From: Alphaproteobacteria bacterium | Lineage (GTDB): Bacteria; Pseudomonadota; Alphaproteobacteria; MPNO01; UBA830 | Direction: 5' to 3' | Length of the DNA stretch: 64,000 nt | NCBI GenBank assembly: GCA_965243135.1 | Contig: OZ251539.1 | Coordinates: forward strand, 3,232,001-3,296,000 | In this document: positions 13,904 to 49,931 of the stretch, piece by piece | Numbering within the stretch: the first letter of the stretch is position 1 | Layout: each line of letters starts with the position of its first letter | Notes under the pieces: generated by a model | Databases searched by the model: none | What the model was told of the DNA's origin: nothing | What the model saw: the letters and a program-made list of their open reading frames with translations, nothing else | Translations under genes and position numbers: made by a program

Positions 13904-14019
13904 TAGTGATCTCGCTCACGGCGGGTTTTCCATGCTTGGCGTCGACGCGCGGTCCGGCGGAGACCGCGCCTCTCCGCTCAAACGCCGTAGTTCTTGTCGC
14001 CGTCGCCTCGCGTTATCGG

Positions 14020-32167: not shown

Positions 32168-32243
32168 GGCACGTCCTCAAGCCCTACCTATCGCGACAGC
32201 GGCTCGCCTTGGCGTCGAAATTATCCCTCTATGGTATTATTGA
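32163..32243 (+). pseudogene. 3'-end stub of darT (DNA ADP-ribosyltransferase toxin)
   Basis: Frame ending at TGA 32243 reads '...ARLGVEIIPLWYY*', like the 'VE++P.WYY' end of DarT, 17 nt upstream of darG. Confidence 0.6.
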
Positions 32244-32260
32244 ACTGGGAGACGATAGAG

Positions 32261-33313
32261 ATGATCCGCTTCAAGACCGGCGACATTCTCGCCGAAGATG
32301 TGGAAGCCTTGGTCAATGCGGTCAATTGCGTCGGCGTCATGGGGCGTGGCGTCGCGCTTCAGTTCAAGAAAGCGTTTCCTGAAAATTTCAAGTCCTATTC
32401 CGCCGCCTGCAAGCGCAAGGAAGTAAAACCGGGCAGGATGTTCGTGTTCGAAACGGGTGCGCTTGCACCCCGCTACATCGTCAACTTCCCCACCAAAAGG
32501 CACTGGCGCACCAACAGTCGGATGGAGGATGTGGAAGCGGGACTGGATGCGCTGGTCGCCGAGATCGAAGCGCGCAACATTCGCTCCATCGCCATACCGC
32601 CCCTTGCCTGCGGCTCGGGCGGTCTCGCCTGGGACGATGTGCGCCCGCGCATCCAAGCGGCGCTGTCTGGCTTGGTCGATCTTCGGGTCACTGTCTTCGA
32701 ACCCGATGCCGCGCCCGTAGCAAAGGATAGGGCGCGCATGCGAAAGCCGCCGGAGATGACTCCGGGCCGTGCGGCGCTTGTGGGCCTGCTGCGCCGCTAC
32801 CTCGACGCCATGCTCGACCCTTTCGTAACTCTGCTGGAGGCGCACAAGCTGATGTATTTCCTGCAAGAGGCGGGCGAACCGCTGCGGCTCCGCTATGCCA
32901 AAGCGCCCCATGGGCCCTATGCCGACAACCTGCGGCGCGTTCTGAACGAGATCGAAGGACACATCGTTTCGAGCGACGCTGACGGCGGCGGCGATCCTGA
33001 AATGCCGTTGGAACTTGTTCCCGGCGCTATCGAAGACGCGGAGGCAGTGCTCAAACGCGAGAGCGAAACACAGACACGGTTCGAGCGGGTTACCGAACTG
33101 ATTTATGGCTTCGAGTCGTCTTTCGGCTTGGAACTCCTCGCAACCGTTCATTGGGTGATGACACGCGAGATCGCCCGGCCGACAAGCGAGGTGGTCGCCC
33201 GCACCCATAACTGGCATAGAAGCAAAATGCGCTTCACCCCTCGCCAGATCGCCCTCGCATCGACGCGACTACGGGAGAAGGGCTGGGTCGCTGCTGCGCC
33301 GCCCGTAACCTGA
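32261..33313 (+). CDS. darG: DarG macrodomain ADP-ribosylglycohydrolase antitoxin
   Basis: Macro domain 'GDILAEDVEALVNAVNCVGVMGRGVALQFK...NFPTKRHW...PPLACGSGGL'; DarG C-domain 'HKLMYFLQEAG..L.L.Y.K..HGPYA', 'GLELLATVHW'. Confidence 0.92.
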   Translation: MIRFKTGDILAEDVEALVNAVNCVGVMGRGVALQFKKAFPENFKSYSAACKRKEVKPGRMFVFETGALAPRYIVNFPTKRHWRTNSRMEDVEAGLDALVAEIEARNIRSIAIPPLACGSGGLAWDDVRPRIQAALSGLVDLRVTVFEPDAAPVAKDRARMRKPPEMTPGRAALVGLLRRYLDAMLDPFVTLLEAHKLMYFLQEAGEPLRLRYAKAPHGPYADNLRRVLNEIEGHIVSSDADGGGDPEMPLELVPGAIEDAEAVLKRESETQTRFERVTELIYGFESSFGLELLATVHWVMTREIARPTSEVVARTHNWHRSKMRFTPRQIALASTRLREKGWVAAAPPVT

Positions 33314-34080
33314 TGACGGCTGATTCGAGCGAAACAGGCTTCGAAATCCTCATCGTCAAATCCTTGATCGACAAGGGCGGCCATGTCGTCAGCGATCCGA
33401 AGGATTGCGGCCGCGCCATCGACGTAGCCAAGCTCTTTGGCTACTCGGACGCGAAGCAGTCCGGGGCCGTCGAGACGTCCGGCATCGGAGCCGACAACTT
33501 GCAACGTATCCGACTCCTCCAACGCCTGCGCGATAAGGTCGACAAACGTGGCGTTGTCGACGTGCTCCGCAAGGGATGTAAGCGCGAACCTGCCTTCGAT
33601 GGAGTTGTTCCAGGGCGCGCCGACCTCCGGCAACGCGAAGGCGGAACCCCTGTTTGCCGCGAACGTCTTCAGCGTCACGCGGCAGCTCCGCCATTCGAGA
33701 GACGAAACCCGGCTCGCGCTTGACCTGGCACCGTTCGTCAACGGTCTGTCCATAGCCGCCTTCGAACTCAAGAACGGCCTGACCAAGCAAAAAATCGAAA
33801 ATGCCGTCGAACAATACCGGCGCGACTGCGACCCGAAGGAACCGTTGTTTCGCTTCGGTCATTGCGTCGTCCATTTCGCGGTGGACAATCAAGAGAGAAG
33901 GATGTGCACCCATCTGCGAGGCAAAGACTCGTGGTTTCTGCCGTTCAATATTGATTGAGATAGCGGCGCAGGAAACACGCCGAACCCGCATTGCCTTGAG
34001 CCGACTACTTGTAGAAGAAGGTTCTGCCAAAAAAAGCCTGACTGACATCCTTGAGAACTACGCCCAGATCGTCTCGGAGG
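33313..34080 (+). pseudogene. hsdR: Type I R-M restriction subunit HsdR, N-terminal remnant
   Basis: 'SETGFE', 'RGVVDVLRKG', 'NVFSVTRQLRHS...DL..FVNGL.I..FELKN.LTKQ...AVEQY', 'SWFLPFN', 'SLTDILENYAQIV'; frameshifts, helicase part absent. Confidence 0.9.
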
Positions 34081-34097
34081 CGGGTGCGCCTTTCCAA

Positions 34098-34541
34098 CTA
34101 GTTCGAAAGTGCAGCCGCCTGACCGGGTGTTTCTTCCAAATTTTCACAGATCAGAACAACGGGATCTCCAACATTCACATAACCCCTTTCGTCATCCTCT
34201 AAATTCATATCCGATCTCATCAATATTTCATACTCCGCGATCCATTTTTTCGGCATAAGCGCATCATAAAGCGTTCCCGATCTTCCAATATTCACTCGCC
34301 TTTTCTTCAACGTAGATGCTACGCAAAGATTTTCCTGAACATGAGTCACTTTGAGTCTTGTCTTAGAACGTTCTATGGAACCCAGAACCTGATTTGTCTC
34401 AGGGTCCGTAATATCCCTGTGCTTGTCATCCACGACATCAAAAATCATTCCCAAACGAACGCCCTGCTTGGAACCAATATTGATTGCCGCCTCGCGAACG
34501 TTAAGGATTTTGGCGATTCTTCCACGAATTGGATCAGTCAT
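34098..34541 (-). CDS. Hypothetical beta-rich protein (FlgT C-terminal-like motif)
   Basis: 'INIGSKQGVRLGMIFDV...ITDPETNQVLGS...LKVTHVQE'; AT-rich; start overlaps the upstream gene's stop. Confidence 0.75.
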   Translation of the reverse strand: MTDPIRGRIAKILNVREAAINIGSKQGVRLGMIFDVVDDKHRDITDPETNQVLGSIERSKTRLKVTHVQENLCVASTLKKRRVNIGRSGTLYDALMPKKWIAEYEILMRSDMNLEDDERGYVNVGDPVVLICENLEETPGQAAALSN

Positions 34542-35023
34542 TTCTATCTCCTCGCAGCTGCATCTGGCGAATTTCCTCGCGATACTTCATCACTTCTTCG
34601 GGCACGATGTCGGCCCAATCTTCCAACGCATCGTCCGGTGTCCGTATTTCCCTGATAATTATTTCTCGAAGCGCCAACATTTTTGCGTCTTCTTTCTCAG
34701 GTTCGGAACTTGCTACCATATGTGCTATTCCGCTCAAACCCTCGTAAAGAGAAACAAGACGTCGAAACGCGGATCTTGCATGCGGTCTGATTGGCTCTCT
34801 TACCACATCTCTCGCCACCTATCTTCCTAAAAGATAAGAACCTGTTAAACCAACGCCAGAAATAAATATTTGGAACAAAATATTTTCCAATTCCGTCAAA
34901 TCTCTATTAGCCGATACCAAGAGAAAAATAACCGCGACTCCTACCGAAATCCCGATTAAAAATTTGCCCGAATTTCCCTATTTCTATAAAGAAAAAGAGC
35001 CATATAATAACTATGCCGTTCAT
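34534..35023 (-). pseudogene. 2-TM membrane protein disrupted by a frameshift and an in-frame TAG
   Basis: ATG 35023 'MNGIVIIWLFFFIEIGKFGQI', shift near a T-run, then 'LIGISVGVAVIFLLVSANRDLTELENILFQIFISGVGLTGSYLLGR*VARDVVREPIRPHARSAFRRL...DALEDWADIVPEEV'. Confidence 0.65.
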
Positions 35024-35256
35024 TGGTCTTGTTGGCAAGGTCATTCGGTGCGCTTCGAAAGCTTATGATCAGCCTATCAACGCCATGGAGGGCAGTATCG
35101 GGGTGGACTGGCCAGCGAGTCAAGGTGCCCCGCCGCCGGCGCGAAAATCTTTCCTGTCCGGTCAAGCATCGACGAACGCCGACGGTGACGACTTCCGGAG
35201 GGTCGTTCGCCTGTCCTTGCACCGTCGGCCCCACGAACTGGCGCGGGCCGGCGGCG

Positions 35257-36837
35257 TCATTCGTCCGCCGTCGGCTCGCGGCGTCCCGCGAGCTTGTTAC
35301 CTGTCTCGAAGTACCGTCCCGTCACGGCGAACTCCGCTTCCTCCGCATTTTCCTGCGTCCAGGCGCTCAAAGGATAGCCGTGCCACGGCGTCCTCAGGTC
35401 GAGTTCGGGCAAGCCCAGCGCTGTCCATTTCTCCCGCGCCGCCCGCATGAAGTCCTCGCGCGGCAACGAGACGGGCAGGTAGGGATGCTCGCGCACCGCG
35501 TTGATCAGGATCGCCGACGCCCCCCGCGCGTCCGGGTACGCGGAATCCGAAGGAGCGACCGAAGGATCGAGACGCGCCACCTTGCCGCGAATGATCTCCA
35601 TATCGCGATGGGGCTGCGTACTGTAGCTCAGCGCCCACAGCACCGCTTCGAGGGAATCGGGATCGACGTCCGAATCGACAGCGATGAAGATCTTGCCAAG
35701 CGACGCGTCGAATGCAGCAGCCGCGCGAAGCGCTTGCCAGGGCTGCCCGGGTTCCGGCCGGTCGAGCTGGATCACGAACAGCATGTTGCAGCTCGCCATT
35801 TCGTGACATGCGACCCTGACGACGGACGGGTTGTTGCAGGCGTCTCTCAGATGCCTCAGATAGATCGCATCGAACGCAGCCTTGCGCATCACCGTGCTTT
35901 CGCTGGGCGGAAATTCGCTGATGATGCCCTGGTAGACGGGATCGGCGCGGTGAGTGACGGCCGTCACCTCGAAGATCTTCTCCATCTTGCGCGGTCCCAG
36001 ATAACCGCTCGCCTCGCCGAACGGCGCCTCGGGCTCCAGCGTATCGGTGCGAATGACGCCTTCCATCACGATTTCGGCTTCGGCCGGCACCATGCAATCG
36101 AACGTCTCCGCCGGGACGACCGCGATCGGCTCGCCGTTGAGCGCGCCGGCGACGCCGTATTCTTCGACGCCGTAGGGGACCTTGCTCGCGGCCGCCAGAA
36201 GCAGCGCCGGCGGGCCGCCCAGGAATACCGCCGCTTCAAGATGCCGGCCCGCCCGGCGCGCCTTCTCCCACTGAATGGCAAGATGCTGCGTGGACACGTC
36301 GGTGGCGCAGCCCATGCGGTCGGGCGCCTTGATCATGCCGCGATAGATGCCGAGATTGTACGTACCGTCCTCCGGATCCCGCGTAATCCAGACGCCCGCA
36401 GTGAGAAACGGCGCCGGATCGAAGCCCGGCGTCGAAACCAGATGAGGAAACCGGTCGATCCCGTCGCCGAAGGCCGCGCCGGCGTGGACGAAGTCCTTCA
36501 CCGGAGCGCTGGACGCTCGCTCGGGCGGCAAGTGGCCGCTCTGCACGCTCGCCCATCGGTCGCCGATCCCGTCGGGCTTCACGCCGAGCGCAGCGGCGTA
36601 TATCGCGCGCGAAGCGCCAAGCGACCCGATTGCTACGGATGCATCGAATTCCCGTCCGCGCGAGTCGGTGACGTTCGTGAACCAGAACGCCTTGCGCCGT
36701 TCCTCGGGCAGGCCGCGAAACTGCAGCCGGACGAGCGGAACGAGTTCGGTGTCCTTGCTGACGCGTTCCCGAACCACATGCAGAAGATCGCGCGCCTGCA
36801 GCTCTTCCAGATACGCCCGCAGATTACGGTACGGCAT
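35257..36837 (-). CDS. UbiD family (prFMN-dependent) decarboxylase
   Basis: 'TRDPEDGTYNLGIYR', 'VPAEAEIVMEG', 'EAPFGEASGY', 'VDSDVDP....VLWAL'. Confidence 0.93.
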   Translation of the reverse strand: MPYRNLRAYLEELQARDLLHVVRERVSKDTELVPLVRLQFRGLPEERRKAFWFTNVTDSRGREFDASVAIGSLGASRAIYAAALGVKPDGIGDRWASVQSGHLPPERASSAPVKDFVHAGAAFGDGIDRFPHLVSTPGFDPAPFLTAGVWITRDPEDGTYNLGIYRGMIKAPDRMGCATDVSTQHLAIQWEKARRAGRHLEAAVFLGGPPALLLAAASKVPYGVEEYGVAGALNGEPIAVVPAETFDCMVPAEAEIVMEGVIRTDTLEPEAPFGEASGYLGPRKMEKIFEVTAVTHRADPVYQGIISEFPPSESTVMRKAAFDAIYLRHLRDACNNPSVVRVACHEMASCNMLFVIQLDRPEPGQPWQALRAAAAFDASLGKIFIAVDSDVDPDSLEAVLWALSYSTQPHRDMEIIRGKVARLDPSVAPSDSAYPDARGASAILINAVREHPYLPVSLPREDFMRAAREKWTALGLPELDLRTPWHGYPLSAWTQENAEEAEFAVTGRYFETGNKLAGRREPTADE

Positions 36838-36883
36838 TCGCCCGGTGCTCCATTGTTAAGCTCGGGGGCATCGCGGCCCCGCT

Positions 36884-37332
36884 TCACGCCCGAAGCCGCG
36901 GCCGGTGCGCGTCGCCCTCGAACGCCCTGCGCCGCCGTTCGTCGTCGAGACCGGGCGTGGCGTCGACGCGGCGCTTGAGTTCGGGATCCATTTTCCTCGG
37001 CTCGACGCATTGCGGCAGTTGGCAGACGGGGACGAAACGAAAGGTCGCAGACCCTGCGAATCGTGTCGTTGCCGATCTGCGCCCAATGACAGGCCGTTTG
37101 CTCCGCGCCGAGATGATGGCCCATGCCGACCGCTCGAGGAGAGAACAACGTCAGGCCGCGTTCGCGCATGAACTTGAGTTGCTCGAGCTTTTCGCGCATC
37201 TCGCCGTCCGACGCCCGGAAGGCGGCGGCGGACGGCCCGAACCCGGGGTTGAACTCCGCATCGGCGAGCCGCTCCCTGCGGCATCAACGCAGCGGGTTCC
37301 GCGGTGCAGTGCCCGTGGCAATCGACGATCAT
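36884..37332 (-). pseudogene. Amidohydrolase, 4-oxalomesaconate hydratase (LigJ)-like remnant
   Basis: 'MIVDCHGHCTAEP', 'QLKFMRERGLTLFSPRAVGMGHHLG...NDTIRRVCDL', 'VCQLPQ', C-terminal 'RRRAFEGDAHRPRL'; frameshifts and a large internal deletion. Confidence 0.75.
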
Positions 37333-38011
37333 GGGGAAACCGCTCCTTGTCTCTCGCGTACCCTGCACTATAGCTAATCGTCGGCATCGCGCCCCGGAAA
37401 GCCGCCCGCCGACGCCGGTTCGCCGACGGCTAAAGGCGCCGCAGCACGCCATCGATGCTGTCTCGTGCGTCGCCGAACGGCATCCGGGCATTCAGGCTGG
37501 GAAGCGCTTTATCGTGCGATAGCATACAGGAAACCGATTCTGGAACCTTACGATACTTCCTGACATAATAAATTTTCGAAGTGTGTAGCAGGTTCTTCAG
37601 AGGGAAACATAACCAACGAAAGCTCGGCCATAAAGCCGAACGTTAGACGTCTGTCATGACGGTCGTGCCTCCTGTCGAGAGAGTCCTTTGCATTTAGCAC
37701 GACCACTACGAGTTAGCGGGAATTTCTGACAATCACAGGTGTTCGACTATAACTAACTGTAACTTCAAGAGAATCTATATCTGGGAGGTATCTATACAAG
37801 GATCGAATCGCCATATATGTCATCTTTAGTATCTGAATACGCTGAATATGACCGTCATACGGCCCATCGAGCGCGACTTAAATCCTGGAATCTCACGAGG
37901 AGCGCGCTATCCTCTGTCACAGGGAAACGAGGCGACTGGCGCTCGGATTCCAAGCCGAAACGCCGGGAGCCATCCCGAAAACAACACGTTTCCCAGGGTC
38001 GGGGTTCCAAC

Positions 38012-38213
38012 CCATAAGCGTCAACTTGTTTGGATACTTCATGTTTCGGGGGCCTCCAATGGTCGAAATTCGCGATGACACGGCAGTTCAGACCCGGATT
38101 TTGGAGACACTGGCCTCACTCACCCGCCCTGATCCGCGTTCTGCCTCACGCTCCTCGGCTTCAGTGGACCAGCGCGAGCAATGCCAAGCCGGGAAACAAG
38201 TTGACGCTTATGG
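38012..38213. mobile_element. 202-bp MITE-like element with perfect 20-bp terminal inverted repeats
   Basis: CCATAAGCGTCAACTTGTTT (38012-38031) and its exact reverse complement AAACAAGTTGACGCTTATGG (38194-38213); no transposase; no clear TSD. Confidence 0.75.
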
Positions 38214-38238
38214 TCGGGAGGGGGGGGGGTGACAGCGG

Positions 38239-38826
38239 TCATCCCTCCGCTGGAGGCTCGGGTTCGAGCACGAATCCCCCGATCGAGAACCGGCCGGCCC
38301 CCCAGTCGTCGGGGTCGCAGCGCACCGGCTCGACCTCGTGCTCGGTCTCGGGCGGGAACGCGACGAAGGCGTTGTGCGCCGGCCGGATCCGGACGGGGCC
38401 GGCGCCGGGCGGATGGAGCACCAGGTCGCCTCCCGCGAAGGCGCACGGACGGCGATGCAGGTAGTAGATGTACGCGATGCGGCGGTTGTCGCACCAACTC
38501 GGCGTGGTCTCTCCGACGTCGGAATGCCGGACATGGAAGTCCCCGTCGTGATGGCACGCCCAAGCGCTATAGAGGCCGGGCGCGGCGGACACGGCCACCC
38601 CCAGCTCCCGCGCCGTCCGCGGAAGCGCCGCGTGGACGCGAGGGAACCACCACTCCCTCTCCCGCGCGCTCAGCTCGGCGTCGAAGGCCGACCGGGTCAG
38701 GCGGTCGATGGTCCCGTCGCCGCTCACCCCTATCGTCCAATCGCCGGAGTACGCATTATCGAACAACGCCACGGCATCGGCGGCGGGCAGAAAGTCGGGA
38801 ATCAGCACATGCGATCTAGGCTTCAT
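38239..38826 (-). CDS. 2OG-Fe(II) oxygenase (prolyl-4-hydroxylase-like), copy A
   Basis: HxD 'HSD', 'RRIAYIYYL', 'FAGGDL', distal His 'HEVEPV', 2OG-binding 'RFSI'; RBS GGAGG. Confidence 0.9.
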   Translation of the reverse strand: MKPRSHVLIPDFLPAADAVALFDNAYSGDWTIGVSGDGTIDRLTRSAFDAELSAREREWWFPRVHAALPRTARELGVAVSAAPGLYSAWACHHDGDFHVRHSDVGETTPSWCDNRRIAYIYYLHRRPCAFAGGDLVLHPPGAGPVRIRPAHNAFVAFPPETEHEVEPVRCDPDDWGAGRFSIGGFVLEPEPPAEG

Positions 38827-38913
38827 CCAGCCTCCGTGCCGTCACTTTCCGGTCGACTGTCCCCCGGACCGTATCGGCGCCGTCGTCCAACCGGGAACGG
38901 CGGGCGATTTCGC

Positions 38914-39501
38914 TCATCCTTCCGCGGAAGGCTCGGGTTCGAGCACGAATCCCACGATCGAGAACCGGCCGGCCCCCCAGTCGTCGGGGTCGCAACGCAC
39001 CGGCTCGACCTCGTGTTCGGTTTCGGGCGGGAACGCGACGAAGGCGTTGTGCGCCGGCCGGATCCGGACGGGGTCGGCGCCGGGAGGATGGAGCACCAGG
39101 TCGCCTCCCGTGAAGGCGCGCGGCCGGCGATGCAGGTAGTAGACATACGCGATGCGGCGGTTGTCCCAGAAAGCCATCGCGGTCTCTCCGGCGTCGCGAT
39201 GCCGGACGTGGAGATCTCCGCTGTGATGGCACGCCCAGGCGGTAAAGAAGTCGGGCGCGGCGGATACGTCCACCCCCAGCTCCCGCGCTGTCCGCGGAAG
39301 CGCCGCGAGGACGCGAGGGAGCCACCATTCCCTCTCGCGCGCGCTCAGTTCGGCGTTGAAGACCGACCGGGACAGGCGGTCGATGATGCCGTTGCCGCTC
39401 GTCCCTATCGTCCAATCGCCGGAGTACGCATTGTCGAACAACGTTGCGGCATCGGCGGCGGGCAGGAAGTCGGGAATCAGCACATGCGATCTAGGCTTCA
39501 T
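38914..39501 (-). CDS. 2OG-Fe(II) oxygenase (prolyl-4-hydroxylase-like), copy B
   Basis: Same motifs (HRD...HEV...RFS); 195 aa, 30 substitutions relative to copy A by manual alignment. Confidence 0.9.
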   Translation of the reverse strand: MKPRSHVLIPDFLPAADAATLFDNAYSGDWTIGTSGNGIIDRLSRSVFNAELSAREREWWLPRVLAALPRTARELGVDVSAAPDFFTAWACHHSGDLHVRHRDAGETAMAFWDNRRIAYVYYLHRRPRAFTGGDLVLHPPGADPVRIRPAHNAFVAFPPETEHEVEPVRCDPDDWGAGRFSIVGFVLEPEPSAEG

Positions 39502-39864
39502 CCAACCTCCGCGCCGTCGTGGTCGAGTTCGGGCCCAACATTCCCAACGGCGCCGCCACCCGCCGCGCTGTCACCGGCGCCCCGGCGGCGGCGAGAACCT
39601 TTCGCCAATCGATGCGGTAGCCGACCCCCTCGAGCCGTTTCAGGGAGTGCCGGCCCGCCTGCATGAGATCCGCCACGCTCTCGGGACGGATCTGGGCGGG
39701 CGCGCCGTCGACGGCGACCACGCACGCGCCGGGCTCCCTGCCCGGCGCGTCGCCGCTGCCCGCGAGCCGCCACCGCACCGGCGAGTCCTCGACCTGCATC
39801 CGGATCAGCACCGTCCGGGGCGGGCCTGCCGGGGCGCCCCGCGGCACCCCGGAAGACCGGGCAT
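39502..39864 (-). pseudogene. Remnant resembling a C39 peptidase domain of a peptidase-containing ABC transporter
   Basis: Strong RBS AAGGAGG before ATG 39864; after a frameshift 'RTVLIRMQVEDS..', 'ACVVAVDG', 'SVADLMQAGRH..L.G.GYRID...L....P' parallels the C39 pattern 'TVLQME..ECG..ACGVSRDG..A.++.AAR.YGL'. Confidence 0.5.
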
Positions 39865-39938
39865 CGGGAACCTCCTTCCGCGACGTGCGGCGAGCCACGT
39901 CGACCAAGCAGGGAGCAGCCCCGCCCTCGCCGGCTCCG

Positions 39939-40319
39939 TCACTGGCCGTAGCGGTACCCCGTAAACCCCGGAAGATTGGGCGGCGAGAAGCACCCACGGT
40001 AGGCGCGAGGGGCCGGCTGCGCCGAAGCGGTCTTGCCGCCGGCGACCATGTCGAGCACCTCGTCCCCCATGCCGGTGTTGAAGTCGGGGGGAAGGACGAA
40101 ATGGAAGACCTCGTCCGTGTCCTCCACGACGCGCACATCCGTATCAGGCGCCACGTCGATGTTGTTCTCGACGAGGGCCGCGACCGGGTCCGAGTCGAAG
40201 TTCGCGCGAAAGTCCAGATCCTCGCGGTACGCATCCGAGATGGACACGAGCTGGCGCGCGCACTGTCTGAATCCTTCGGCTTCCATCGGTACGTGGAGCA
40301 TCGTCGTCAAGTTGATCAT
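39939..40319 (-). CDS. NHLP (nitrile hydratase leader peptide)/proteusin-type RiPP precursor
   Basis: Leader 'DLDFRANFDSDPVAALVENNIDVAPDTDVRVVEDTDEVFHFVLPP...DEVLDMVAGG' with double-Gly site; 31-aa core KTASAQPAPRAYRGCFSPPNLPGFTGYRYGQ; purine-rich RBS before 40319. Confidence 0.85.
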   Translation of the reverse strand: MINLTTMLHVPMEAEGFRQCARQLVSISDAYREDLDFRANFDSDPVAALVENNIDVAPDTDVRVVEDTDEVFHFVLPPDFNTGMGDEVLDMVAGGKTASAQPAPRAYRGCFSPPNLPGFTGYRYGQ

Positions 40320-40530
40320 GTCTTCGTTCCTTCTTCCCAAGACCCATGTGACCACGCCCAACGGCTCCTCACGAGGATACTGCCATTAAGCGCCGGAAGC
40401 GCCATTACAGCGCCCGGTGCGCCCCGTCGTCAACCCCGAGTTGACCCTAATCTCGAGCTTGGGCCATGCCTGTCCGGGCGTCGCTGTGCGTGTCATGAGG
40501 GGTCCGTTCGCGCTCTTCCCCCCGGCGCGC

Positions 40531-40588
40531 GCCCCACCCCGACCTCCCCCCTGCCATTGCCTGACAGGAGGGAGGTCGGGAGGGGGGT
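40531..40588. repeat. GC-rich imperfect palindrome/hairpin; right arm repeated at 38212
   Basis: CCCGACCTCCCCCCTGCCA...TGACAGGAGGGAGGTCGGG; GGTCGGGAGGGGGG occurs at 40574-40587 and 38212-38225. Confidence 0.55.
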
Positions 40589-40800
40589 CACGCGGCCCCG
40601 CAACGCCGCGCGCTCCTCGGTCCCCGCCGGTAGGAGAAATGTGGGCTGGTGTCGTAACATGAATCATGCCGACCGGGTTCGACGCGGCGAAGCGTTCGGC
40701 CACCCTCGATTCCGGAGGATTGGACATGGCCCGGGCCGGGGAGGCGTTCCCGGGCGCTCTTGAAAGACGCCCGACGCGGGATACCCGTCCCTGAACGCCC

Positions 40801-40941
40801 ATACCGGAACCGACGCATACGGGCGTACTGATCGCCGGCCCCAAGGCCGCGGGAAAGTCCCGGCTCGCGCTCGCGGAGGCCCTGGAGTCTTTCGGCGGGG
40901 CGACGATCATAAATTCGGACAGTATGCAGGTCTATCGCGAC
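40801..40941 (+). pseudogene. miaA: 5' fragment of tRNA dimethylallyltransferase MiaA
   Basis: 'VLIAGPKAAGKSRLALAEALESFGGATIINSDSMQVYRD' matches the MiaA N-terminus (GPTASGKS...DSMQVY); ends abruptly. Confidence 0.8.
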
Positions 40942-41174
40942 TCTCGGAGCGGCACCGTGGTGATTTCCGCGCGCGGAATGGCGACTCCCGACCGCATGGC
41001 GCCCATGCCTCCCGCGCGTTGCGCCGCCAACCGGTCGATCCCGAGTTTCCATGTGGCGATCGCCTGGAGCAGCGTGGATTTCCCGGCGTTGTTCGGTCCT
41101 GCGAGAACGACCGTATCCGCCAGCTCCTCCTCGCGAAAGCGTTTGAAGTTCTTGATGGAAACGCGCCGGATCAT
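40932..41174 (-). pseudogene. 5' fragment of an AAA/ABC ATPase
   Basis: 'MIRRVSIKNFKRF...LAGPNNAGKSTLLQAI'; only 80 aa, no Walker B. Confidence 0.8.
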
Positions 41175-41640
41175 CTTTGCCTCGGCGCCGCGGTCGCCAT
41201 GGCGATCGCCTTTCCGCCCCCTCGCCCCGGCAGGCGGCCGAAAGCGCGTTGACGAGCTTCAAGAAGCGGGGACCGCGCTCGCGTTCCGCCCACGCGGGCA
41301 GCGCGGCGTCGACTTCGAAGGAACATGAGGGCGCGCCGACGCTCGACGTTCGGGAACCGGGAATGCCGGGCGGCGCGGAGAGCCAACCGACCCCTTGCCG
41401 TTTCCGGAATGCTGCGCATGGCATTCTGCTCTGTTATCGCGACATTATGCCATTGTCGTCCGCGGATGACCATCCACTGCGCGCCGCTCTTCGGACCCGC
41501 GGAGTCGACCGCGCTTGCGCGACGCGACGCGGCCTTTTACGGGCCTTCCGAGGACAATCGGCGAAGCCGCGCCCGCCTCTCCGGCGCGGCTTCACAAAAA
41601 TGTTATTGGCCTGCGCGTCGCCGGAGCCTATATTTGCGGC

Positions 41641-42366
41641 ATGAAAAAACTCGTTCCCCTCGCTGTCGCTTCGCTAACGCTCGCTGCGGCGACGGCGAGC
41701 GCCGACAACGATCCCGTCGTCGTCGAGCTTTTCACCTCGCAGAGTTGCTATTCGTGCCCGCCGGCCGAGAAATTCCTCGGCGAACTCGCCGGAAGAAAGG
41801 ATGTCCTCGCGCTCGAGTTTCATGTCGACTACTGGAACGATCTCGTATTCGGCGAAGCCGGACGATGGAAGGACGTTTTCTCCAAGCGCGCCTTTACGGA
41901 ACGGCAGATCGGTTACAATCAGCGAATCCGCGAACAGTCGAACGTGTACACGCCGCAAATGGTCGTGGGCGGGCGGCTGGAAGCCGTCGGATCGCATCGC
42001 GCCAACGTCCTGTCCGCGATCGAGGCCTCCGCAACCGACCGAAACGACCGCGTTCGCATCGAGATCGCCCTCGACCCCGAAACGAACGTGACCCTCGCCG
42101 GCGATTCCGTCGAACGCGGAACCGTATGGCTCGTTCGGTTCGTCGAACGGCATCGAACCGACGTGCGGGGCGGCGAGAACAAGGGCAAGTCTCTGGTCAA
42201 CCACCATGTCGTGACGGAGGTCCGGCGAATCGGCGAATGGGCGGGACAGGGCATGTCTGTGACGGTGACGGATTTCTCCCTGGCGGCGGGAGAGGGATGC
42301 GCCGTGCTCGTGCAGGACGATCGCCAAGGCCCGATTCTGGGCGCCGGCGCCTGTCCGGCGCTCTGA
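41641..42366 (+). CDS. DUF1223 family secreted thioredoxin-like protein
   Basis: Signal peptide; 'VVVELFTSQSCYSCPPA', 'FHVDYW', 'YTPQMVV'. Confidence 0.9.
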   Translation: MKKLVPLAVASLTLAAATASADNDPVVVELFTSQSCYSCPPAEKFLGELAGRKDVLALEFHVDYWNDLVFGEAGRWKDVFSKRAFTERQIGYNQRIREQSNVYTPQMVVGGRLEAVGSHRANVLSAIEASATDRNDRVRIEIALDPETNVTLAGDSVERGTVWLVRFVERHRTDVRGGENKGKSLVNHHVVTEVRRIGEWAGQGMSVTVTDFSLAAGEGCAVLVQDDRQGPILGAGACPAL

Positions 42367-42454
42367 TCGGGAAGAAGGCGGCCGGCAGACCGACCGAATT
42401 GCCGAACCGCCGGCGGCCGCGTAAGCTCCCTCTTGGACGCGAAGCGGAGGCCGC

Positions 42455-43327
42455 ATGTTCGAATTCGGCGACGTCACGGTCGCTCCGATCGTCGAAATGG
42501 AACTGCCGCTGCTCGAAGCCGCGGCGTTCTTCCCCGATTGGAACGAGGACGCGATCGAACCGCACCGCGAGTGGATGGTTCCGCGCCACTACGACCCGGC
42601 AAGCGGCAAGGTCGTGATCAATATCCAGTCCTTCCTGGTCCGCACGCCTCGCCATACGATCCTGGTCGACACCTGCGTCGGCAACCGCAAGCGGCGCAAC
42701 CGGGAGTTTTTCGACGACGCGGCGTTCCCCTGGATGGACCGTTTCCTCGCGGCCGGCGCGACGCCCGAGGAAATCGATTTCGTCCTGTGCACCCACATGC
42801 ACGTCGATCACGTCGGCTGGAACACCAGGCTCGAGAACGGGCGCTGGGTTCCGACGTTTCCCAACGCGAAATACATCTTCGCGCGATCCGAACTCGACTT
42901 CTGGCTGCGGCAGTCGGAACGGAACCTGATGACGCGCACCGGCGATTACGTGGCCGACAGCGTGATCCCGATACTCGACGCAAGGCGCGAACTGCTGGTC
43001 GAAACGGATCACCAGATCGACGACGGGCTTACGCTGGAACCGTTGCCCGGCCACACGCCGGGAATGGTGGGACTTCGCATCTCTTCCGGTGGACGCGAAG
43101 CGGTCCTCTGCGGCGATCTCATGCATCATATGATCCAGTGCCATATTCCCGGCTGGAGCACCATCGCCTGCGCCGACCGCGAAGCGGCCCGGGCCACCCG
43201 GGAAGCGTTCCTCGACCGCTACGCCGAAACGGACGTCACCGTCGTCCCGTCCCACTTCCCGACCCCGACGGCGGGCGCGATCGTTCCTTGCGGGGGAGCC
43301 TTCGCTTTCCGCTACCTGGGCGAATGA
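42455..43327 (+). CDS. MBL-fold metallo-hydrolase
   Basis: 'THMHVDHVGWN', 'PGHTPG', 'GDLMH', 'SHF'. Confidence 0.92.
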   Translation: MFEFGDVTVAPIVEMELPLLEAAAFFPDWNEDAIEPHREWMVPRHYDPASGKVVINIQSFLVRTPRHTILVDTCVGNRKRRNREFFDDAAFPWMDRFLAAGATPEEIDFVLCTHMHVDHVGWNTRLENGRWVPTFPNAKYIFARSELDFWLRQSERNLMTRTGDYVADSVIPILDARRELLVETDHQIDDGLTLEPLPGHTPGMVGLRISSGGREAVLCGDLMHHMIQCHIPGWSTIACADREAARATREAFLDRYAETDVTVVPSHFPTPTAGAIVPCGGAFAFRYLGE

Positions 43328-43451
43328 ACGCGGACGCCGGCCCGTCCGCCGGAACGAGGGCAGCGGGCGCGACGGCCGCTTCGCAAACGGCGCGGCGGTC
43401 CGCTCCGAAACGATCCCCGGAGCGGCTTCGAAAAGACGTTCCGCGCCGAAT

Positions 43452-45116
43452 TCAGAACAGTCCCTCGATCCTTCCCCCCGCGCCGAGCCTGATGGCGGCG
43501 GCGGCGGGAACCCGCGGCAGTCCGGGCATCGTCATGATGTCGCCGCAGATCGCCACCACGAATTCCGCGCCGGCCGAAAGCCGGACCTCGCGCACCGGAA
43601 CGACGTGATCGACCGGCGCGCCCTTGAGTTCCGGATCGACCGAGAAGCTGTACTGGGTCTTGGCCATGCACACCGGCAGGTTCCGGTAACCCTCCTCCTC
43701 CCAGCGCCGAAGCTGGTCGAGAACCCGCCTGTCCGCAGTCGCTTCGGCGCCGCGATAAATCTCGCGGACGACCGTGCCGATCTTGTCGAACAGGCCCATG
43801 TCGTCCGGATAGAGCGTCCTGAAATCCGCGTCGCCGCGCGCCACGACCGCGTCCACCTCTCGCGCCAGCGCCTCGATGCCCGCGGAACCGTCCGCCCAGT
43901 GGGTGCATTCCACCACCGGGACTTCGCCGCCGATCCCGGACGCCACGACCGCGACCTCGGCGTCGCTGTCGTCCGCGAAACGGTTGACGGCCACGACCGG
44001 AGGCACTCCGAAACGCGCGACGTTCTCGACGTGCCGGCGAAGATTGGGGAGGCCCTTCGCGACCGCCCCCGCGTTCTCCGTCCCCAGATCCCGGCGCGCG
44101 ACCCCGCCGTGCATCTTGAGGGCGCGGACGGTGGCCACGATCACGGCGGCGTCGGGCCGAAGGTTCGCCTTGCGGCACTTGATGTCGAAGAACTTCTCGG
44201 CGCCGAGATCCGCCCCGAAGCCGGCCTCGGTCACCACGTAGTCCGCCAGGCGAAGCGCCGCTTCCGTCGCGATCACCGAATTGCACCCGTGCGCAATGTT
44301 GGCGAACGGGCCGCCGTGGACGAAGGCGGGGTTGTTCTCCAGCGTCTGCACCAGATTGGGCATCAACGCGTCTTTCAACAGAACGGCCATCGCGCCGTCG
44401 GCCTGCAGGCGGCCGGCGGTCACCGGGGCGCGGTCGCGAGTCTGGCCGACGACGACGTTCGCGAGGCGGCGCTCCAGATCCGGGAGCGACAGCGCGAGGC
44501 AAAAGATCGCCATCACTTCGGAAGCGACGGTGATGTCGAAGCCGCTTTCGCGGGCGAAGCCGTTGGCGACGCCGCCCAACCCGACGGCGACCTCGCGCAG
44601 CGCGCGATCGTTGATGTCCACGACCCGCCGCCAGGAAATCCGGCGCGAATCGAGTTCCGCCGCGTTGTCCCAATAGACATGGTTGTCGACCATCGCGGCG
44701 AGGAGATTATGCGCCGCGCCGATGGCGTGCATATCGCCGGTGAAATGGAGATTGATGTCCTCCATCGGCACCACTTGGGCGTACCCGCCGCCGGCCGCGC
44801 CGCCCTTCATGCCGAAGCACGGACCGAGGGAAGGCTCGCGGATGCAAACCGCCGCCTTCCTGCCGATGCGGTTCAACCCGTCGACCAGGCCCACCGTGGT
44901 CGTCGTCTTGCCTTCGCCGGCGGGGGTGGGCGTAATCGCCGTCACGAGAACCAGCTTGCCCCTTGGACGGTCGCGAAGTCCGTCGAGAAAGCCATGGTCG
45001 AGTTTGGCCTTGTCGACTCCATAAGCGCGAAGCGCATCGGCCGGTATTCCCATGCCGGCGCCGATCTCGCCGATCGGCAGGGTCTTCGCGGCGCGGGCGA
45101 TCTCGATATCGGTCAT
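43452..45116 (-). CDS. fhs: Formate--tetrahydrofolate ligase
   Basis: 'TPAGEGKTT', '[14 protein letters not shown]', '[12 protein letters not shown]', '[13 protein letters not shown]'. Confidence 0.98.
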
Positions 45117-45263
45117 GAGCCTCTCCGACAGCGGCGGGAGAACGTAATCGCCGCCGAAGCAAATCACAAACGGCGGCGCGTTTGCGAGCAGGAAAACCGA
45201 GCGTATGACACGCGGACGGGCAGGCTATAGGTTTACCCGTCGTTTCAAAGGTCGGCGGTCGCC

Positions 45264-47411
45264 ATGCGGACCCGAATCCTTCTTCTGATTTTGGTTCTCG
45301 CCGGCGCGGCGGCGGGGCCGCCGCTCCATGCCCAGAGCGCCGCCGCGCCGCCGGCCCAGGAGGAAGCCGCCGGGCCGAGCCAGGCCGAGTTGACGGACCT
45401 CGTGGCGGACATCGAGGATCCGGAAGCCCGCGCGAAGTTGCTGACCCGCCTCAAGATCCTCCTTGCGGCGACCGACGGGACCGCAAAACCGGAGGCGGCC
45501 GGGGAAAGCGGAATCGCCAAAGCGCTGTCGGAGCGAATCGACCGCCTCAGCGAGGAACTGGTCGCCGGCGCCGCGCTGTTGCTCGATCCTCCGCGCGTCG
45601 CCGCATGGATTCGCGATCAGGCGGAACGCAAGGAATCGAGGAACCTCTGGCTGAACGTTCTGTGGATGTCGGCGGTCGTTCTGGCTGCCGGGCTGATCGC
45701 CGAACTCGGCGCGCGCCGCCTCCTGTCCCGCACGCGCGAAAGATTGCTGCCGCGGCACGTCGCAGCCCGGACGTCGCTCGACCTCGTTTCCATCGCCTCC
45801 TTCGCCGTCGCCGCTTACGCCGCGCTTTTCCTGCTCGGAGCCGGGGAGGCGACCCGCGCGGTCGCGGCGCCCTTGGTGGCCGCCAGCGTCGTCGCCCGAG
45901 CCGCCGCGGTTCTCGCCACGACGTTTTTCGCGCCGGGCGCGCCGCACATGCGCGCAACGAAACTCGACGACGAAACCGCGAACTATCTGGCGCTTTGGAT
46001 CCGCCGCTTCGCCAATGTCGGCGCCTACGGCTACTTTCTGGTCGAGTCGACGAGGCTGCTGGGGCTTCCGCACGGCGGTCAGTTCCTGCTCGGAAGGGCG
46101 GTCGGCCTGCTTCTGGCGTCGCTGGCGATCATCTTCGTCCTGCAGAACCGCCGGAGCGTCGCAGCGCGGATTCGCGGAGACGGCGGGAGCCTCGGCGCCC
46201 TTCGCCGCCGTTTCGCCGCCGTCTGGCACCTGTTCGCGGCGGGGTATTTCGGGGCCGTCTACGTCGTCTGGGCGCTGGAGACCGGGTTCGAATTCGTCTT
46301 CCGCGCCACCGTGATCAGCGCCGCGATCGTCGCGGCGGCCAAGGTCCTGACGTCGGGCTCCCGCATCGCCCTCGACAGGGGTTTCGGATTGCGGCCGGAA
46401 CTCGTCCGGCGGCATCCGGGGCTCGTCGAACGGGCGAACCGGTATTTTTCGGCGCTGCATCACGCGGTTTCCTGGACGATCGCGGCCGCGGCGGCCCTCG
46501 CGATCCTGCGGGCCTGGGGCGTCGACTCCTTCGGCTGGATCGACAGCGAGACGGCGCGCCGGGCGATCGGCAGCCTGGTCACGAGCGCGATCGTGGTCGT
46601 CGTCGCGGTGGCGCTGTGGGAAGTCGCGAGCTCCGCCATCGAGCGCTATCTGGAGTCGGCCGCGAACGGCGACCCCGGGCGCCGCGCGCGCACCCTCCTG
46701 CCCTTGCTTCGCCGGGTCCTGATGATCGTCACCGCCACCGTGATCGGACTCGTGCTTCTTTCGGAAATCGGCGTGGACATCGGGCCGCTGCTGGCCGGAG
46801 CGGGCGTCGTCGGCCTCGCGGTCGGGTTCGGCGCGCAGACGCTGGTGAAGGACGTGATCACCGGCGTCTTCATCCTCGCGGAGAACCAGTTCGGGGTCGA
46901 CGACGTCGTGCGCGTCGGCGACAGGTCGGGGGTGGTCGAGGACATCTCCATCCGCACCATCCGTCTCCGCGACCTGAGGGGCAACGTTCACATCATTCCG
47001 TTCAGTTCGGTTTCGACCGTGGAGAACATGACCAGCGAGTTCTCCCGCTACCTGTTCGACATCGGCGTCGCCTACCGCGAAGACGTGGACGAAGTGATCG
47101 AGGTCCTCGAAGCGCTCGGCGAGGAGATGCGGGCCGATGCCGTCTACGGCGGCTGGATCCACGAGCCCTTGGAGATCATGGGGCTGAACGAGCTCGGCGA
47201 TTCCGCGGTGGTCGTCCGCTCGCGCTTCACCACCGATCCCGGCAGGCAGTGGCAGGTCGGCCGCGAGTTCAATCGCCGGATCAAGCGCCGCTTCGACGAG
47301 CTCGGCATCGAAATCCCGTTCCCGCACCGGACGGTTTATTTCGGGGAAGGGAAGGAAGGCGGCGCGCCGCCGGCCTTCGTGCGCGAAGAGCGGGAAGCGG
47401 GCGCGGAATAG
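45264..47411 (+). CDS. MscS-family mechanosensitive channel (YbiO-like)
   Basis: Signal peptide, many TMs, 'LLAGAGVVGLAVGFGAQTLVKD', 'GIEIPFP'. Confidence 0.92.
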   Translation: MRTRILLLILVLAGAAAGPPLHAQSAAAPPAQEEAAGPSQAELTDLVADIEDPEARAKLLTRLKILLAATDGTAKPEAAGESGIAKALSERIDRLSEELVAGAALLLDPPRVAAWIRDQAERKESRNLWLNVLWMSAVVLAAGLIAELGARRLLSRTRERLLPRHVAARTSLDLVSIASFAVAAYAALFLLGAGEATRAVAAPLVAASVVARAAAVLATTFFAPGAPHMRATKLDDETANYLALWIRRFANVGAYGYFLVESTRLLGLPHGGQFLLGRAVGLLLASLAIIFVLQNRRSVAARIRGDGGSLGALRRRFAAVWHLFAAGYFGAVYVVWALETGFEFVFRATVISAAIVAAAKVLTSGSRIALDRGFGLRPELVRRHPGLVERANRYFSALHHAVSWTIAAAAALAILRAWGVDSFGWIDSETARRAIGSLVTSAIVVVVAVALWEVASSAIERYLESAANGDPGRRARTLLPLLRRVLMIVTATVIGLVLLSEIGVDIGPLLAGAGVVGLAVGFGAQTLVKDVITGVFILAENQFGVDDVVRVGDRSGVVEDISIRTIRLRDLRGNVHIIPFSSVSTVENMTSEFSRYLFDIGVAYREDVDEVIEVLEALGEEMRADAVYGGWIHEPLEIMGLNELGDSAVVVRSRFTTDPGRQWQVGREFNRRIKRRFDELGIEIPFPHRTVYFGEGKEGGAPPAFVREEREAGAE

Positions 47412-47490
47412 CGTCGGCGCGGAACCGCGCATCGCGCGAGGACCAGGGGGTCATGGCCGAAATCGAGACCCGAACGACCTTGCCTGCCCC

Positions 47491-47956
47491 TTACGAGCGC
47501 AAAGCGCTCCGAACTCGCTGCAACCGACACGGCCTGCAGCGTTCGGACCGCGCCGACGAATCTCGTTCCGGCGGGCACCTTCTCGGATAAGCATCGCGCA
47601 CTGCATCCCAGTCGCCAAAGTACCAAGCCTCTAGCTCTTCGATCACGAAACGCTATCTGCCACGAGTTATCGGCAACCTGGGTCCGAGTACGCAGATTCG
47701 ACGCCGCCGCCTCAAGCTGTCTTTTTAAATCGTGGCAATCATCATTGTCGCGATCGACCATCACGACTATACGCCAATCAGACGGAAGCCAACTCGCGGA
47801 TAACCTTTCACCCAGATTCCGCAACAATCTAGATTTGCCGCGAGATGCATGGACCTTGAACGTGCAACCACTCGGAAGAAGACGTGGAAGCAGGCCTCGC
47901 AAAAAACTCCATCGAGGATTCCTCGACAAAAAATTTCAAGTCCCGTGCCTTATCAA
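47491..47956 (-). pseudogene. DUF4276-like (Toprim-type) ATPase partner, two frameshifts
   Basis: 'FFVEESSME' / shift / 'LRGLLPRLLP...GK..LL..L..RL...WRIVVMVDRDNDDCHDLK' / shift / 'VIEELEAWYFGDW'. Confidence 0.8.
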
Positions 47957-47962
47957 TTAAGT

Positions 47963-49189
47963 TTATTCTCCAAAATACGCTGGGTCGCCATTCCGAAAAA
48001 GGGGATCTCCCAATCCAAAATATCCCTCCATCCACAAATCTCCAAGAATGGCGCCATTTTTGATTAATGCCTCTATGTTGCTCAAATCCGCCACGGGCTG
48101 CGTACGCGTATAGCCCGCTTCGTCACGCCATAGAACTCGAACCTCCTCCGCCCGAAGCGCATCCACGAATAACGGCGAATGCGTGGTGATAAGAAGCTGC
48201 GTATGCTCGCAGGCGGCGCGGCATTCCTCGGCCAATTCAAAAAGGAGACGAGGATGCAGAAAATTTTCAGGTTCTTCAATACCTATAAACGGCGGCGGAT
48301 CCAGATCGTACAACAGCACGAACAAAGTAAGCATCTTTAATGTGCCATCAGAGGCAAACCGTGCTAAAACAGGATTTCCAAATGGAGCATCCTTGATTTT
48401 CAACGACAATCGGCCGTCCGACATCGTCTCGGTCAATACCCTTTCTATGCGCGGCACGCGTCTTCGGAGCGTTTCGATTATCTTCTCGAGTCGCGTCGAG
48501 TGCCGCTCGCTCAGGCATTGTATGACATTGGCGAGGTTGTCTCCGGTGGCGCTAAGCCGCTCTTGCGGATCCGTTCCCTGTTGCCCTCGGACGTTGTCCG
48601 CAGAAAGACGTGAGACATGGCATCCCATGACGAAGTCACGCAGCGCCGCTACCCGCGGATGTTCCTGCAACTGGCCAAGTACATTGGCAGCCAGAAGATC
48701 GGGCGACTTAAGGAGAATTGTCCGACGTTCGTCTTCGACGCGTGGCTCGTCGCCGCCGGTCGATTCGCCTTCGCCGCCGCTGAAACGGAGGAAACGAAAT
48801 GGGCCGCCCCGACGGCCAAGCCTCCACGCCAACCATTCATGCGCGACTGTCGGAGAGCCGCCATCCTCGTCGATTTCCAAATGATACGTGATCAATCTTT
48901 CCCCAGGCCGCTCGCGGTATTTCATTTCGATGACGATCGGTCCTTGGGAGTCGCGGGTCCTTAACTCTTTGGCGCGGCCGCGGCGATTCCATGCGCTGTG
49001 CAGGCCGAATTGAAAGCACTCCGCGAGGAACGCAAAGACGTCGAACACCGTGGATTTACCGCTGCCGTTCGGGCCGATAAGCACCGTCATCGGGGTTAGA
49101 TCGCGAAATTCAACTTCCCGAAGCGCTCGGAAATTTCGGACCTTCAGACACTCCACTCGAGGAATTTTTTGACACGCCGATTCGCGCAT
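47963..49189 (-). CDS. AAA_21-like ABC ATPase
   Basis: 'VRNFRAL', Walker A 'GPNGSGKS', 'ASDGTL', '[10 protein letters not shown]', 'ITTHSP'; alternative TTG start at 49204. Confidence 0.92.
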
Positions 49190-49423
49190 GTCGATTTCTC
49201 CCAAGTGAAACTACAACTTATGGACCAAGGAAAAAAGTAATGATTTGCGGAAACGAATTGTCATCATATCTACCAATTCAACTCCGTAAATCACGCATAT
49301 CTACTTTCGTCGCTTGATTACGTTCGCCACCTTTCCTTCAAAAACTCTCGCAACAATTCTCCTGCCTCCTTCATGCGAGCGCATGCGGAATCGGCAATCC
49401 GCGCCGCCCGCCCGAACAAGCGC

Positions 49424-49441
49424 GTTTCATACGCTCTTCTT
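49424..49441. repeat. 18-bp dispersed repeat GTTTCATACGCTCTTCTT, copy 2
   Basis: Exact match to 12458-12475. Confidence 0.8.
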
Positions 49442-49533
49442 TCGTCCATAGACGCCGGACGTGGATACAGGCAACGAGCGATCGCCGCAACCTCGTCGAA
49501 AAACCGCCTCGGCAAGCCGACGATTCGTCGGCC

Positions 49534-49905: not shown

Positions 49906-49931
49906 GTCCTCCTCCTGTTCCCTGCGCCCGG

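Follow-up and report, generated by a model that had tools for sequence, protein, structure and literature searches.

What kind of peptide pathway could be built around a precursor gene whose only adjacent enzymes resemble prolyl hydroxylases? The question is raised by a locus within a 64,000-nucleotide stretch of an alphaproteobacterial chromosome (positions 3,232,001 to 3,296,000 of contig OZ251539.1, GenBank assembly GCA_965243135.1), hereafter the window, whose 6.1 Mb source genome is termed G000. Between positions 38239 and 40319 of the window, the minus strand carries four open reading frames (ORFs) arranged head to tail, and the same cassette is carried by two other alphaproteobacterial genomes, G078 and G012. 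An earlier note, made from the window's sequence, had described four co-oriented units forming a minimal module for a ribosomally synthesised peptide with post-translational modifications (RiPP) of the nitrile hydratase-like leader peptide (NHLP), or proteusin, type: a precursor, a broken C39-like gene and two intact oxygenases. ORFs are indeed present at all four positions, and the precursor and both oxygenases are intact, but the second unit is not a broken C39 gene. We consider it moderately probable, on the strength of the sequences and a structural model, that the locus is a compact mobile RiPP cassette in which oxygenases resembling PHD-type prolyl hydroxylases would oxidise the precursor core, most likely by hydroxylation of proline, with further processing supplied in trans.

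The precursor gene (39939–40319, minus strand) encodes 126 residues followed by a stop codon. The search with an NHLP leader model that the earlier note had proposed for this interval returned a match between residues 32–95 and positions 14–77 of the 77 in TIGR03793 (E = 1.5e-10), at a score of 40.7 bits against a curated NCBIfam cut-off of 50.9. Because the E-value is significant and yet the score lies under the annotation threshold, the precursor is best assigned to a divergent NHLP subfamily. Among proteins of solved structure, its sequence matches the NHLP leader 8tb1 (E = 1.8e-6) and, with E-values of 0.009–0.8, nitrile hydratase alpha chains. The leader ending in LDMVAGG noted earlier is thus of NHLP type. 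The leader comprises residues 1–95 (40035–40319, minus strand) and terminates in DEVLDMVAGG. The remaining residues, 96–126 (39942–40034, minus strand), form the 31-residue core KTASAQPAPRAYRGCFSPPNLPGFTGYRYGQ, with five prolines, three tyrosines and one cysteine, exactly as first reported.

A protein search with the precursor in 5.8 billion sequences gave 31 candidates, among which 14 proteins (13 homologues and the window's own) make up the subfamily alignment. All 24 invariant columns fall within the leader, and residues A93, G94 and G95 at its end are unchanged in 14 of 14 members; the cores, in contrast to this conserved leader, are hypervariable. Three core types can be distinguished. 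The Pro-rich type, with the motif C[FYW][ST]PP[ND][LA]PGF[ST]G[YW] in the leader's own frame, occupies five of the 14 rows (the window, P0002, P0003, P0005 and P0006), and its 13 residues are likewise present at the G078 cassette locus, L021. Six rows carry a Cys-rich core (...PP[AS]CGCGA[GS]C[IL]D.W) and three a third type (RR[IL][IV]R....). A metagenome scan with the precursor alignment produced 220 pattern matches and no relatives. At a second G078 locus (L023, 6001–6399) one of the Cys-rich precursor copies has ...PPACITVTPGCMGAFGRD at the place occupied by ...PPACGCGAGCIDSWTFGRD in its paralogue, a difference that looks like a short internal double frameshift creating a new core. In G012 (L019, 7490–7760 and 9900–10170), tandem short repeats precede both precursor genes, the frame deciding whether they read (ADG)n, (SAP)n or (MAL)n; inspection by eye showed none upstream of the window precursor.

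The earlier note had cautioned that the true core might be rich in Ser, Thr, Ala and Gly and lie in another frame, the Pro-rich reading being a frameshift artefact. The alternative frame is open, as is usual at 70% G+C, and nothing further speaks for it. The caveat is refuted because the Pro-rich motif is conserved at the amino-acid level in the leader's frame, in four independent homologues besides the window and in L021, which also answers the question of whether the Pro-rich core is kept in homologous precursors. The precursor ORF moreover has a G+C content of 0.84 at third codon positions. We therefore give the frameshift explanation almost no credence.

The two oxygenase genes each encode 195 residues (oxygenase 1, 38914–39501; oxygenase 2, 38239–38826; both minus strand) and match the 2-oxoglutarate (2OG)-Fe(II) oxygenase family PF13640 with scores of 50.4 and 50.0 bits, respectively, against a cut-off of 27. 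All 11 sequences compared (the two oxygenases and nine homologues) share H101, D103, H163 and R179. By analogy, we take the first three to be the HxD...H iron triad and R179 to be the basic residue for the 2OG C5 carboxylate; the description of two intact HxD...H...R oxygenases is thus upheld. Oxygenase 2 duplicates oxygenase 1 in tandem (85% identity), and the 675-nt repeat unit takes in about 25 nt of the sequence upstream. Between the two copies the ratio of nonsynonymous to synonymous substitution rates (dN/dS) is 0.55 overall, with 0.67 for codons 1–128 and 0.22 for codons 129–195, and the oxygenase values range from 0.15 to 0.66. Purifying selection acts on the oxygenases and also on the small ORF described below, and the N-terminal divergence of the duplicates would fit specialisation for different sites.

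The AlphaFold2 (AF2) model of oxygenase 1 (pLDDT 80) has a PHD/P4H-like predicted fold. Its nearest structures are protein prolyl hydroxylases (Foldseek E-values of 2e-8 to 1e-6, TM scores of 0.6–0.66), headed by the Trichoplax PHD with HIF peptide (6f0w; E = 2.3e-8, TM 0.66) and including Pseudomonas PPHD with EF-Tu and human PHD2. Alignment with VIA-align gave Z = 17.9 for the Pseudomonas prolyl hydroxylase PPHD (4j25; root-mean-square deviation 2.7, 168 residues aligned), 16–17 for PHD2 and 16.3 for Tpa1, in keeping with the prolyl-hydroxylase-like label given earlier to these genes. The fold suggests a peptidyl-proline substrate.

The same cassette could instead perform other Fe/2OG chemistry, such as beta-hydroxylation of Asn/Asp, Phe or Tyr, aromatic hydroxylation, desaturation or oxidative cross-linking of Cys to an aromatic residue. 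Macrocyclisation catalysed by an alpha-ketoglutarate (alpha-KG) dioxygenase is reportedly the subject of one paper on RiPPs, which PMC13060819 and PMC12636437 list among their references. The invariant motif offers Cys, aromatic, Ser/Thr, Asn/Asp and Tyr/Trp positions in addition to proline, and the oxygenase was ancestrally paired also with Cys-rich cores that keep just Pro-Pro or Pro-Ser. In addition, the Fe/2OG RiPP enzymes CinX, ThoJ/TsaJ, CanE and CzlI (accessible part of PMC11575548), together with MppG (accessible part of bioRxiv 10.64898/2026.10.04.756588), have Asp, His, Phe and Trp as their targets. Nevertheless, the best structural matches are nearly all protein prolyl hydroxylases and the motif contains three invariant prolines, including an X-Pro-Gly site, and we regard a reaction at another residue as rather unlikely. 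Proline hydroxylation is accordingly the chemistry assumed in the proposal that follows.

How far the precursor and the oxygenases belong together is best seen from their distribution. Counting oxygenase matches at E <= 1e-10 within the order that holds G000 (78 genomes), three genomes are positive, G000 included, and the oxygenase of G012, which belongs to another family, is 88% identical. In a scan of one genome per species, subfamily precursors occurred in only two further records, G012 and G078, and distant NHLP arrays in two more. The G078 cassette is very close to that of the window (precursor 93%, small ORF 100%, oxygenase 1 98.5% and oxygenase 2 96.4% identical) with both oxygenases intact, and the G012 cassette has a 61% identical precursor, an 83% identical small ORF and a single oxygenase. 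The gene order is the same in the three genomes at three unrelated chromosomal sites, flanked by miaA and serB, next to ilvIHC, in G078, by RidA-like and flavodoxin-like genes in G012, and by an island of gene fragments in G000. The proposal that precursor and oxygenases form a self-contained module is well supported by this arrangement, and the cassette is, in our assessment, a real, conserved and mobile unit of RiPP type.

Homology between G000 and G078 is confined to a block at 38220–40941 of the window (minus strand), which corresponds to L021 5279–8099. By blastn, window 40554–38220 aligns with L021 5764–8099 at 96.7% identity over 2338 nt, and window 40941–40560 with L021 5279–5669 at 91.3%. 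At the upstream end lies a truncated 5' miaA fragment (40813–41034, plus strand), equivalent to residues 8–86 of the MiaA encoded beside the G078 cassette (tblastn, 65% over 79 residues); the full-length miaA of G000 is found at 3050048–3050929 of the chromosome, 220 kb from the fragment. Between this fragment and the precursor is an element resembling a repetitive extragenic palindrome (REP-like; 40556–40650, found by blastn), with three copies in G000 and several in each of the G078 loci L021, L023 and L024. The window copy is judged to be an import from a G078-like context because it brought along a miaA fragment and a REP-like element that is common around the G078 copies and rare in G000.

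This history also bears on the possibility that the cassette is a non-functional passenger, its genes linked by co-copying and the window copy heading for decay. Frameshifts disrupt two of the three G000 copies, the surrounding island holds fragments of miaA, of an AAA ATPase gene and of a restriction enzyme gene, and no promoter-like or terminator-like site was found in a scan limited to sigma-70-type consensus sequences. On the other side, G000 and G078 each have the full set of four genes intact and G012 has three, the oxygenases and the small ORF show dN/dS values below 1, the catalytic residues do not vary, and between G000 and G078 the small ORF has accumulated three synonymous changes and no nonsynonymous ones. 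Such a passenger is in our view improbable.

A further indication that the oxygenases work on the core comes from the eight subfamily precursor loci across G000, G012 and G078. Intact oxygenases accompany all three Pro-rich cores and none of the five Cys-rich (or variant) cores. The two Cys-rich loci of G000 retain oxygenase remnants with frameshifts and stops and have mostly lost the small ORF, at the Cys-rich locus of G012 just the opening codons of the small ORF survive, and the two in G078 have nothing downstream. Core type thus tracks the presence of the oxygenase, which, given the few loci and the relatedness of the genomes, we treat as a pattern rather than a statistical test. As a comparative pattern, it would depict RiPP cassettes in which precursor and enzyme spread together, export is left to a resident exporter and the enzyme disappears once the core type changes.

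The stretch between the precursor and oxygenase 1 had been read as a broken C39-like gene (39502–39938). This assignment is rejected: no similarity to the C39 peptidase family PF03412 was found there by any search. Searching all six frames of the genome, across stop codons, gave two matches, neither in the window; Pfam scans of the small ORF at E-values up to 10 gave no C39 match; and tblastn with the genome's own C39 domains returned scattered short fragments, the best being 34 residues on the opposite strand (E = 0.009 in a 600-nt search space). The region instead contains a small ORF of 102 residues from an ATG at 39799 that is common to all three genomes (39491–39799, minus strand). Its G+C content by codon position (0.73/0.57/0.91) resembles that of oxygenase 1 (0.69/0.52/0.82) and oxygenase 2 (0.70/0.54/0.85). 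Compared with G012, synonymous and nonsynonymous codon differences number 16:16 in its own frame and 11:23 and 5:29 in the other frames, with a dN/dS of 0.39. From these signatures the small ORF is a real, conserved and apparently intact predicted gene. Its stop overlaps the start of oxygenase 1, by 11 nt in the window and as an ATGA overlap in G012; the two forms are separated by a 5-nt indel that alters the C-terminal tail only. The start may lie further upstream, at GTG 39898 in the window; four codons downstream of that position G078 and G012 have ATG or GTG and the window has ACG.

The small ORF resembles few proteins. A HMMER search of 1.84 billion representatives found one true relative cluster together with PEGA-repeat and other repetitive proteins, and phmmer matched two PEGA-repeat proteins (E = 7e-13 summed over five repeats, and E = 1e-4). 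A BLASTP comparison with a single PEGA repeat gave E = 2e-5, the PEGA model PF08308 had no Pfam match and reached P = 7e-4 and a probability of 26% in hhalign, and PDZ_6 matched at E = 0.0056, under its cut-off. These likenesses to PEGA and PDZ domains are weak and fall short of proof. Searches of the PDB by sequence and of the ESM Atlas gave nothing credible and no usable match, respectively, and a RiPP recognition element (RRE; PqqD, PF05402) was not matched at E-values up to 10. Prediction of a complex of oxygenase, precursor and small ORF, with the last as partner, scored 0.02 against a mark of 0.32, which speaks neither for nor against binding.

The earlier description of a minimal module holds locally and fails genome-wide. 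No PF03412 match lies in the window, no exporter adjoins the cassette in the genome-wide six-frame search, and no radical SAM epimerase of the PoyD type was seen near the precursor in the region inspected (33000–46000). G000 nevertheless has about 20 NHLP-type genes, and outside the window lies a large classical RiPP island with several NHLP precursors (contig C1, 3779000–3817000; loci L099 and L100). There, tailoring genes encode two fused thiazole/oxazole-modified microcin (TOMM) cyclodehydratases (TIGR03882 + TIGR03604; YcaO), a SagB, an OlsC/LpxO-like hydroxylase and, at 3790162–3791658, a radical SAM epimerase of PoyD-like type (TIGR04517, scoring 315.7 bits where the cut-off is 325). An NHLP exporter follows at 3794153–3800904, about 520 kb from the cassette, with the HlyD protein TIGR03794, the C39 ABC transporter TIGR03796 (1020 bits) and its partner TIGR03797. 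These export and tailoring genes are some 510–545 kb from the cassette, a decayed copy of which sits at the island edge (3814713–3815700), and C39-domain genes are present in all three cassette-bearing genomes. The cassette being minimal only locally, cleavage, export and possibly other modifications can be supplied in trans. Two other alphaproteobacterial chromosomes, both metagenome-assembled (L025 and L026), contain five and seven tandem NHLP-type precursor genes whose products are 32–46% identical to the window precursor.

A different role might be envisaged in which the precursor is an intracellular, nitrile hydratase-like small protein whose tail is hydroxylated for regulation or oxygen sensing, by analogy with PPHD and EF-Tu. 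The closest structure to the oxygenase is the EF-Tu-hydroxylating Pseudomonas PPHD and the cassette has neither protease nor exporter, as such a sensor would allow. The double-glycine leader end is however invariant across the 14 members, the genome has a dedicated NHLP exporter alongside its many NHLP-type genes, hypervariable cores on a conserved leader are typical of RiPP precursors, and a mobile, often-decaying cassette is unlike a housekeeping sensor. We judge the intracellular role quite improbable and return to the RiPP cassette as the preferred explanation.

Looking beyond the cassette, a protein search with the oxygenase gave 13 proteins among 683 candidates, four of them 81–99% identical (one being oxygenase 2) and the next full-length at about 37%. 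In metagenomes, 67 loci hold relatives of 26–56% identity. None of the 67 contains an NHLP precursor, a result which is weakly informative because many of the loci are just 1–3 kb long; a positive control on the distant NHLP arrays worked. A 33% identical homologue in genome G009 also has no NHLP precursor within its 15-kb locus (about 7 kb on each side). The linkage of oxygenase and NHLP precursor elsewhere, which the earlier note had asked about, is therefore present in the cassettes of three genomes and absent from the distant-homologue loci that were scanned. The wider oxygenase family does not seem to be generally linked to RiPPs, and, given the 67 loci, the NHLP link would be specific to the close clade. 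Pfam domains were counted in 63 ORFs (L062, L078, L086 and L094 were excluded for internal stops or X): PF13640 in 61, TPR repeats in six and an N-terminal PqqD/RRE domain in one. The PqqD/RRE domain is a hallmark of RiPP enzymes, and the relative fused to it is L042 (700 residues, 31% identical). Since some relatives carry fused peptide-binding modules, a separate helper protein in the cassette is plausible. At metagenome locus L084 (3575–5651) two TPR-fused 2OG-FeII_Oxy_3 genes, distant relatives, stand in tandem, again a tandem duplication.

Taken together, the gene content, conservation, synteny, selection, fold and catalytic residues described above lead to the following scheme. An NHLP-type precursor would be translated with a folded leader of about 95 residues and a 31-residue core. 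PHD-like Fe(II)/2-oxoglutarate oxygenases, a pair in G000 whose differences lie mostly in the N-terminal half and a single enzyme in G012, would then oxidise the conserved core motif CFSPPNLPGFTGY, the likeliest reaction being hydroxylation of at least one proline. The small co-translated ORF may aid the oxygenase, for instance in substrate recruitment, and the NHLP-type C39 ABC exporter encoded elsewhere in the genome would, in trans, cut the product after the double glycine and export it. We infer that the oxygenase acts on the precursor, which residue and reaction are concerned, what the small ORF does and that processing occurs in trans. The locus is on these grounds a candidate NHLP RiPP with a putative new class of tailoring enzyme and a putative small partner protein.

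Several observations weigh against this scheme. The precursor scores under the TIGR03793 threshold and, between G000 and G078, has undergone nine nonsynonymous changes and one synonymous change, an excess that could reflect relaxed constraint, with the 13-residue motif unchanged. Neither an exporter nor a protease adjoins the cassette in any of the three genomes, and the window copy lies among pseudogene fragments. The fold does not prove a proline substrate because identity to the prolyl hydroxylases is just 16–21%, and PiuC and an uncharacterised Shewanella oxygenase fall within 2 Z units of them. The AF2 model of the small ORF, built from three sequences, is too poor for a fold (pLDDT 36). 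The distant metagenome relatives are without NHLP precursors, and fusion to an RRE occurs in a single one of the scanned ORFs. Finally, the chemistry of the cassette is deduced from sequence and a structural model, and its expression is putative. A more detailed version, in which a PHD-type hydroxylase is the defining and locally only tailoring enzyme, the small partner replaces the RRE or TPR modules carried in fusion by distant relatives, a cassette of about 2.7 kb uses the host NHLP exporter to yield a hydroxyproline peptide, and the tandem oxygenases are site-specialised for the PP and LPG prolines, is put forward tentatively, as a possibility.

Around the cassette, the window contains apparent gene fragments or accessory genes (32231–34050 and 40932–41174, by eye). 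From their translations we presume these to be a macro-domain (DarG-like) ORF, N-terminal pieces of a type I restriction R subunit and an 80-residue N-terminal fragment of an AAA ATPase. Three stretches (11000–14000, 34000–35000 and 47000–50000) have a G+C content of 0.45–0.56 compared with the usual 0.63–0.72 and are probably foreign DNA. Scans of the window for tRNA genes and Rfam families found nothing.

If the RiPP cassette is as proposed, it would join PHD/P4H-type prolyl hydroxylases to leader-guided RiPP biosynthesis, fields so far unlinked in bacteria. With three or four short genes, it would be a very small and easily expressed system, a model for the guidance of a 2OG oxygenase by a folded NHLP leader and for the role of the small partner, and a route to site-specific hydroxyproline in peptides. 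A full-text literature search, with most subscription journals outside its scope, found no description of a P4H/PHD-type enzyme in a bacterial RiPP cluster, which agrees with the earlier suggestion of a possibly undescribed RiPP type.

The window precursor shares with known NHLP precursors (the TIGR03793 clan, comprising proteusins and NHLP azoline and lanthipeptide precursors) a long leader related to nitrile hydratase alpha and a (D/E)EVL..VAGG end and, at the level of the system, hypervariable cores, many paralogues per genome and an NHLP C39 ABC exporter in the genome. It differs in scoring below the family cut-off and in having some 30 additional residues at the N-terminus (MINLTT...). 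The cluster also differs in that PHD-like oxygenases are the only adjacent enzymes, with no radical SAM epimerase, YcaO, LanM or exporter adjoining. The oxygenases in turn have the double-stranded beta-helix, HxD...H motif and C-terminal Arg of PHD-type prolyl hydroxylases (PPHD/EF-Tu, 4iw3 and 4j25; PHD2; 6f0w; Tpa1/OGFOD1), with Z scores of 16–18 over 161–181 residues, but they are divergent in sequence, shorter at 195 residues, and tied to a leader-bearing peptide as opposed to a housekeeping substrate.

Closer in context are Fe/2OG enzymes already placed in RiPP pathways. CzlI, a JmjC-type Phe hydroxylase, is listed with other such enzymes in the accessible part of PMC11575548. MppG, as described in the accessible part of its preprint (bioRxiv 10.64898/2026.10.04.756588), is a leader-dependent alpha-KG/non-heme-iron hydroxylase that acts on a Nif11 precursor; it has its own RRE domain and hydroxylates Trp at C-beta, after lanthionine formation, within a large cluster. 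Like MppG, the window oxygenases are paired with a precursor bearing a long folded leader, but by that description they are set apart by having no RRE, an intervening small ORF and no further adjacent enzyme. In nitrilobacillin, according to the accessible part of PMC13060819, 3-hydroxyproline is formed by PesO, an alpha-KG enzyme of the HExxH family. PesO would share with the cassette oxygenases the proposed hydroxylation of proline on a RiPP core by an iron/2OG enzyme, and it differs in its active-site architecture, HExxH in PesO as opposed to the canonical facial triad of the oxygenases in the cassette.

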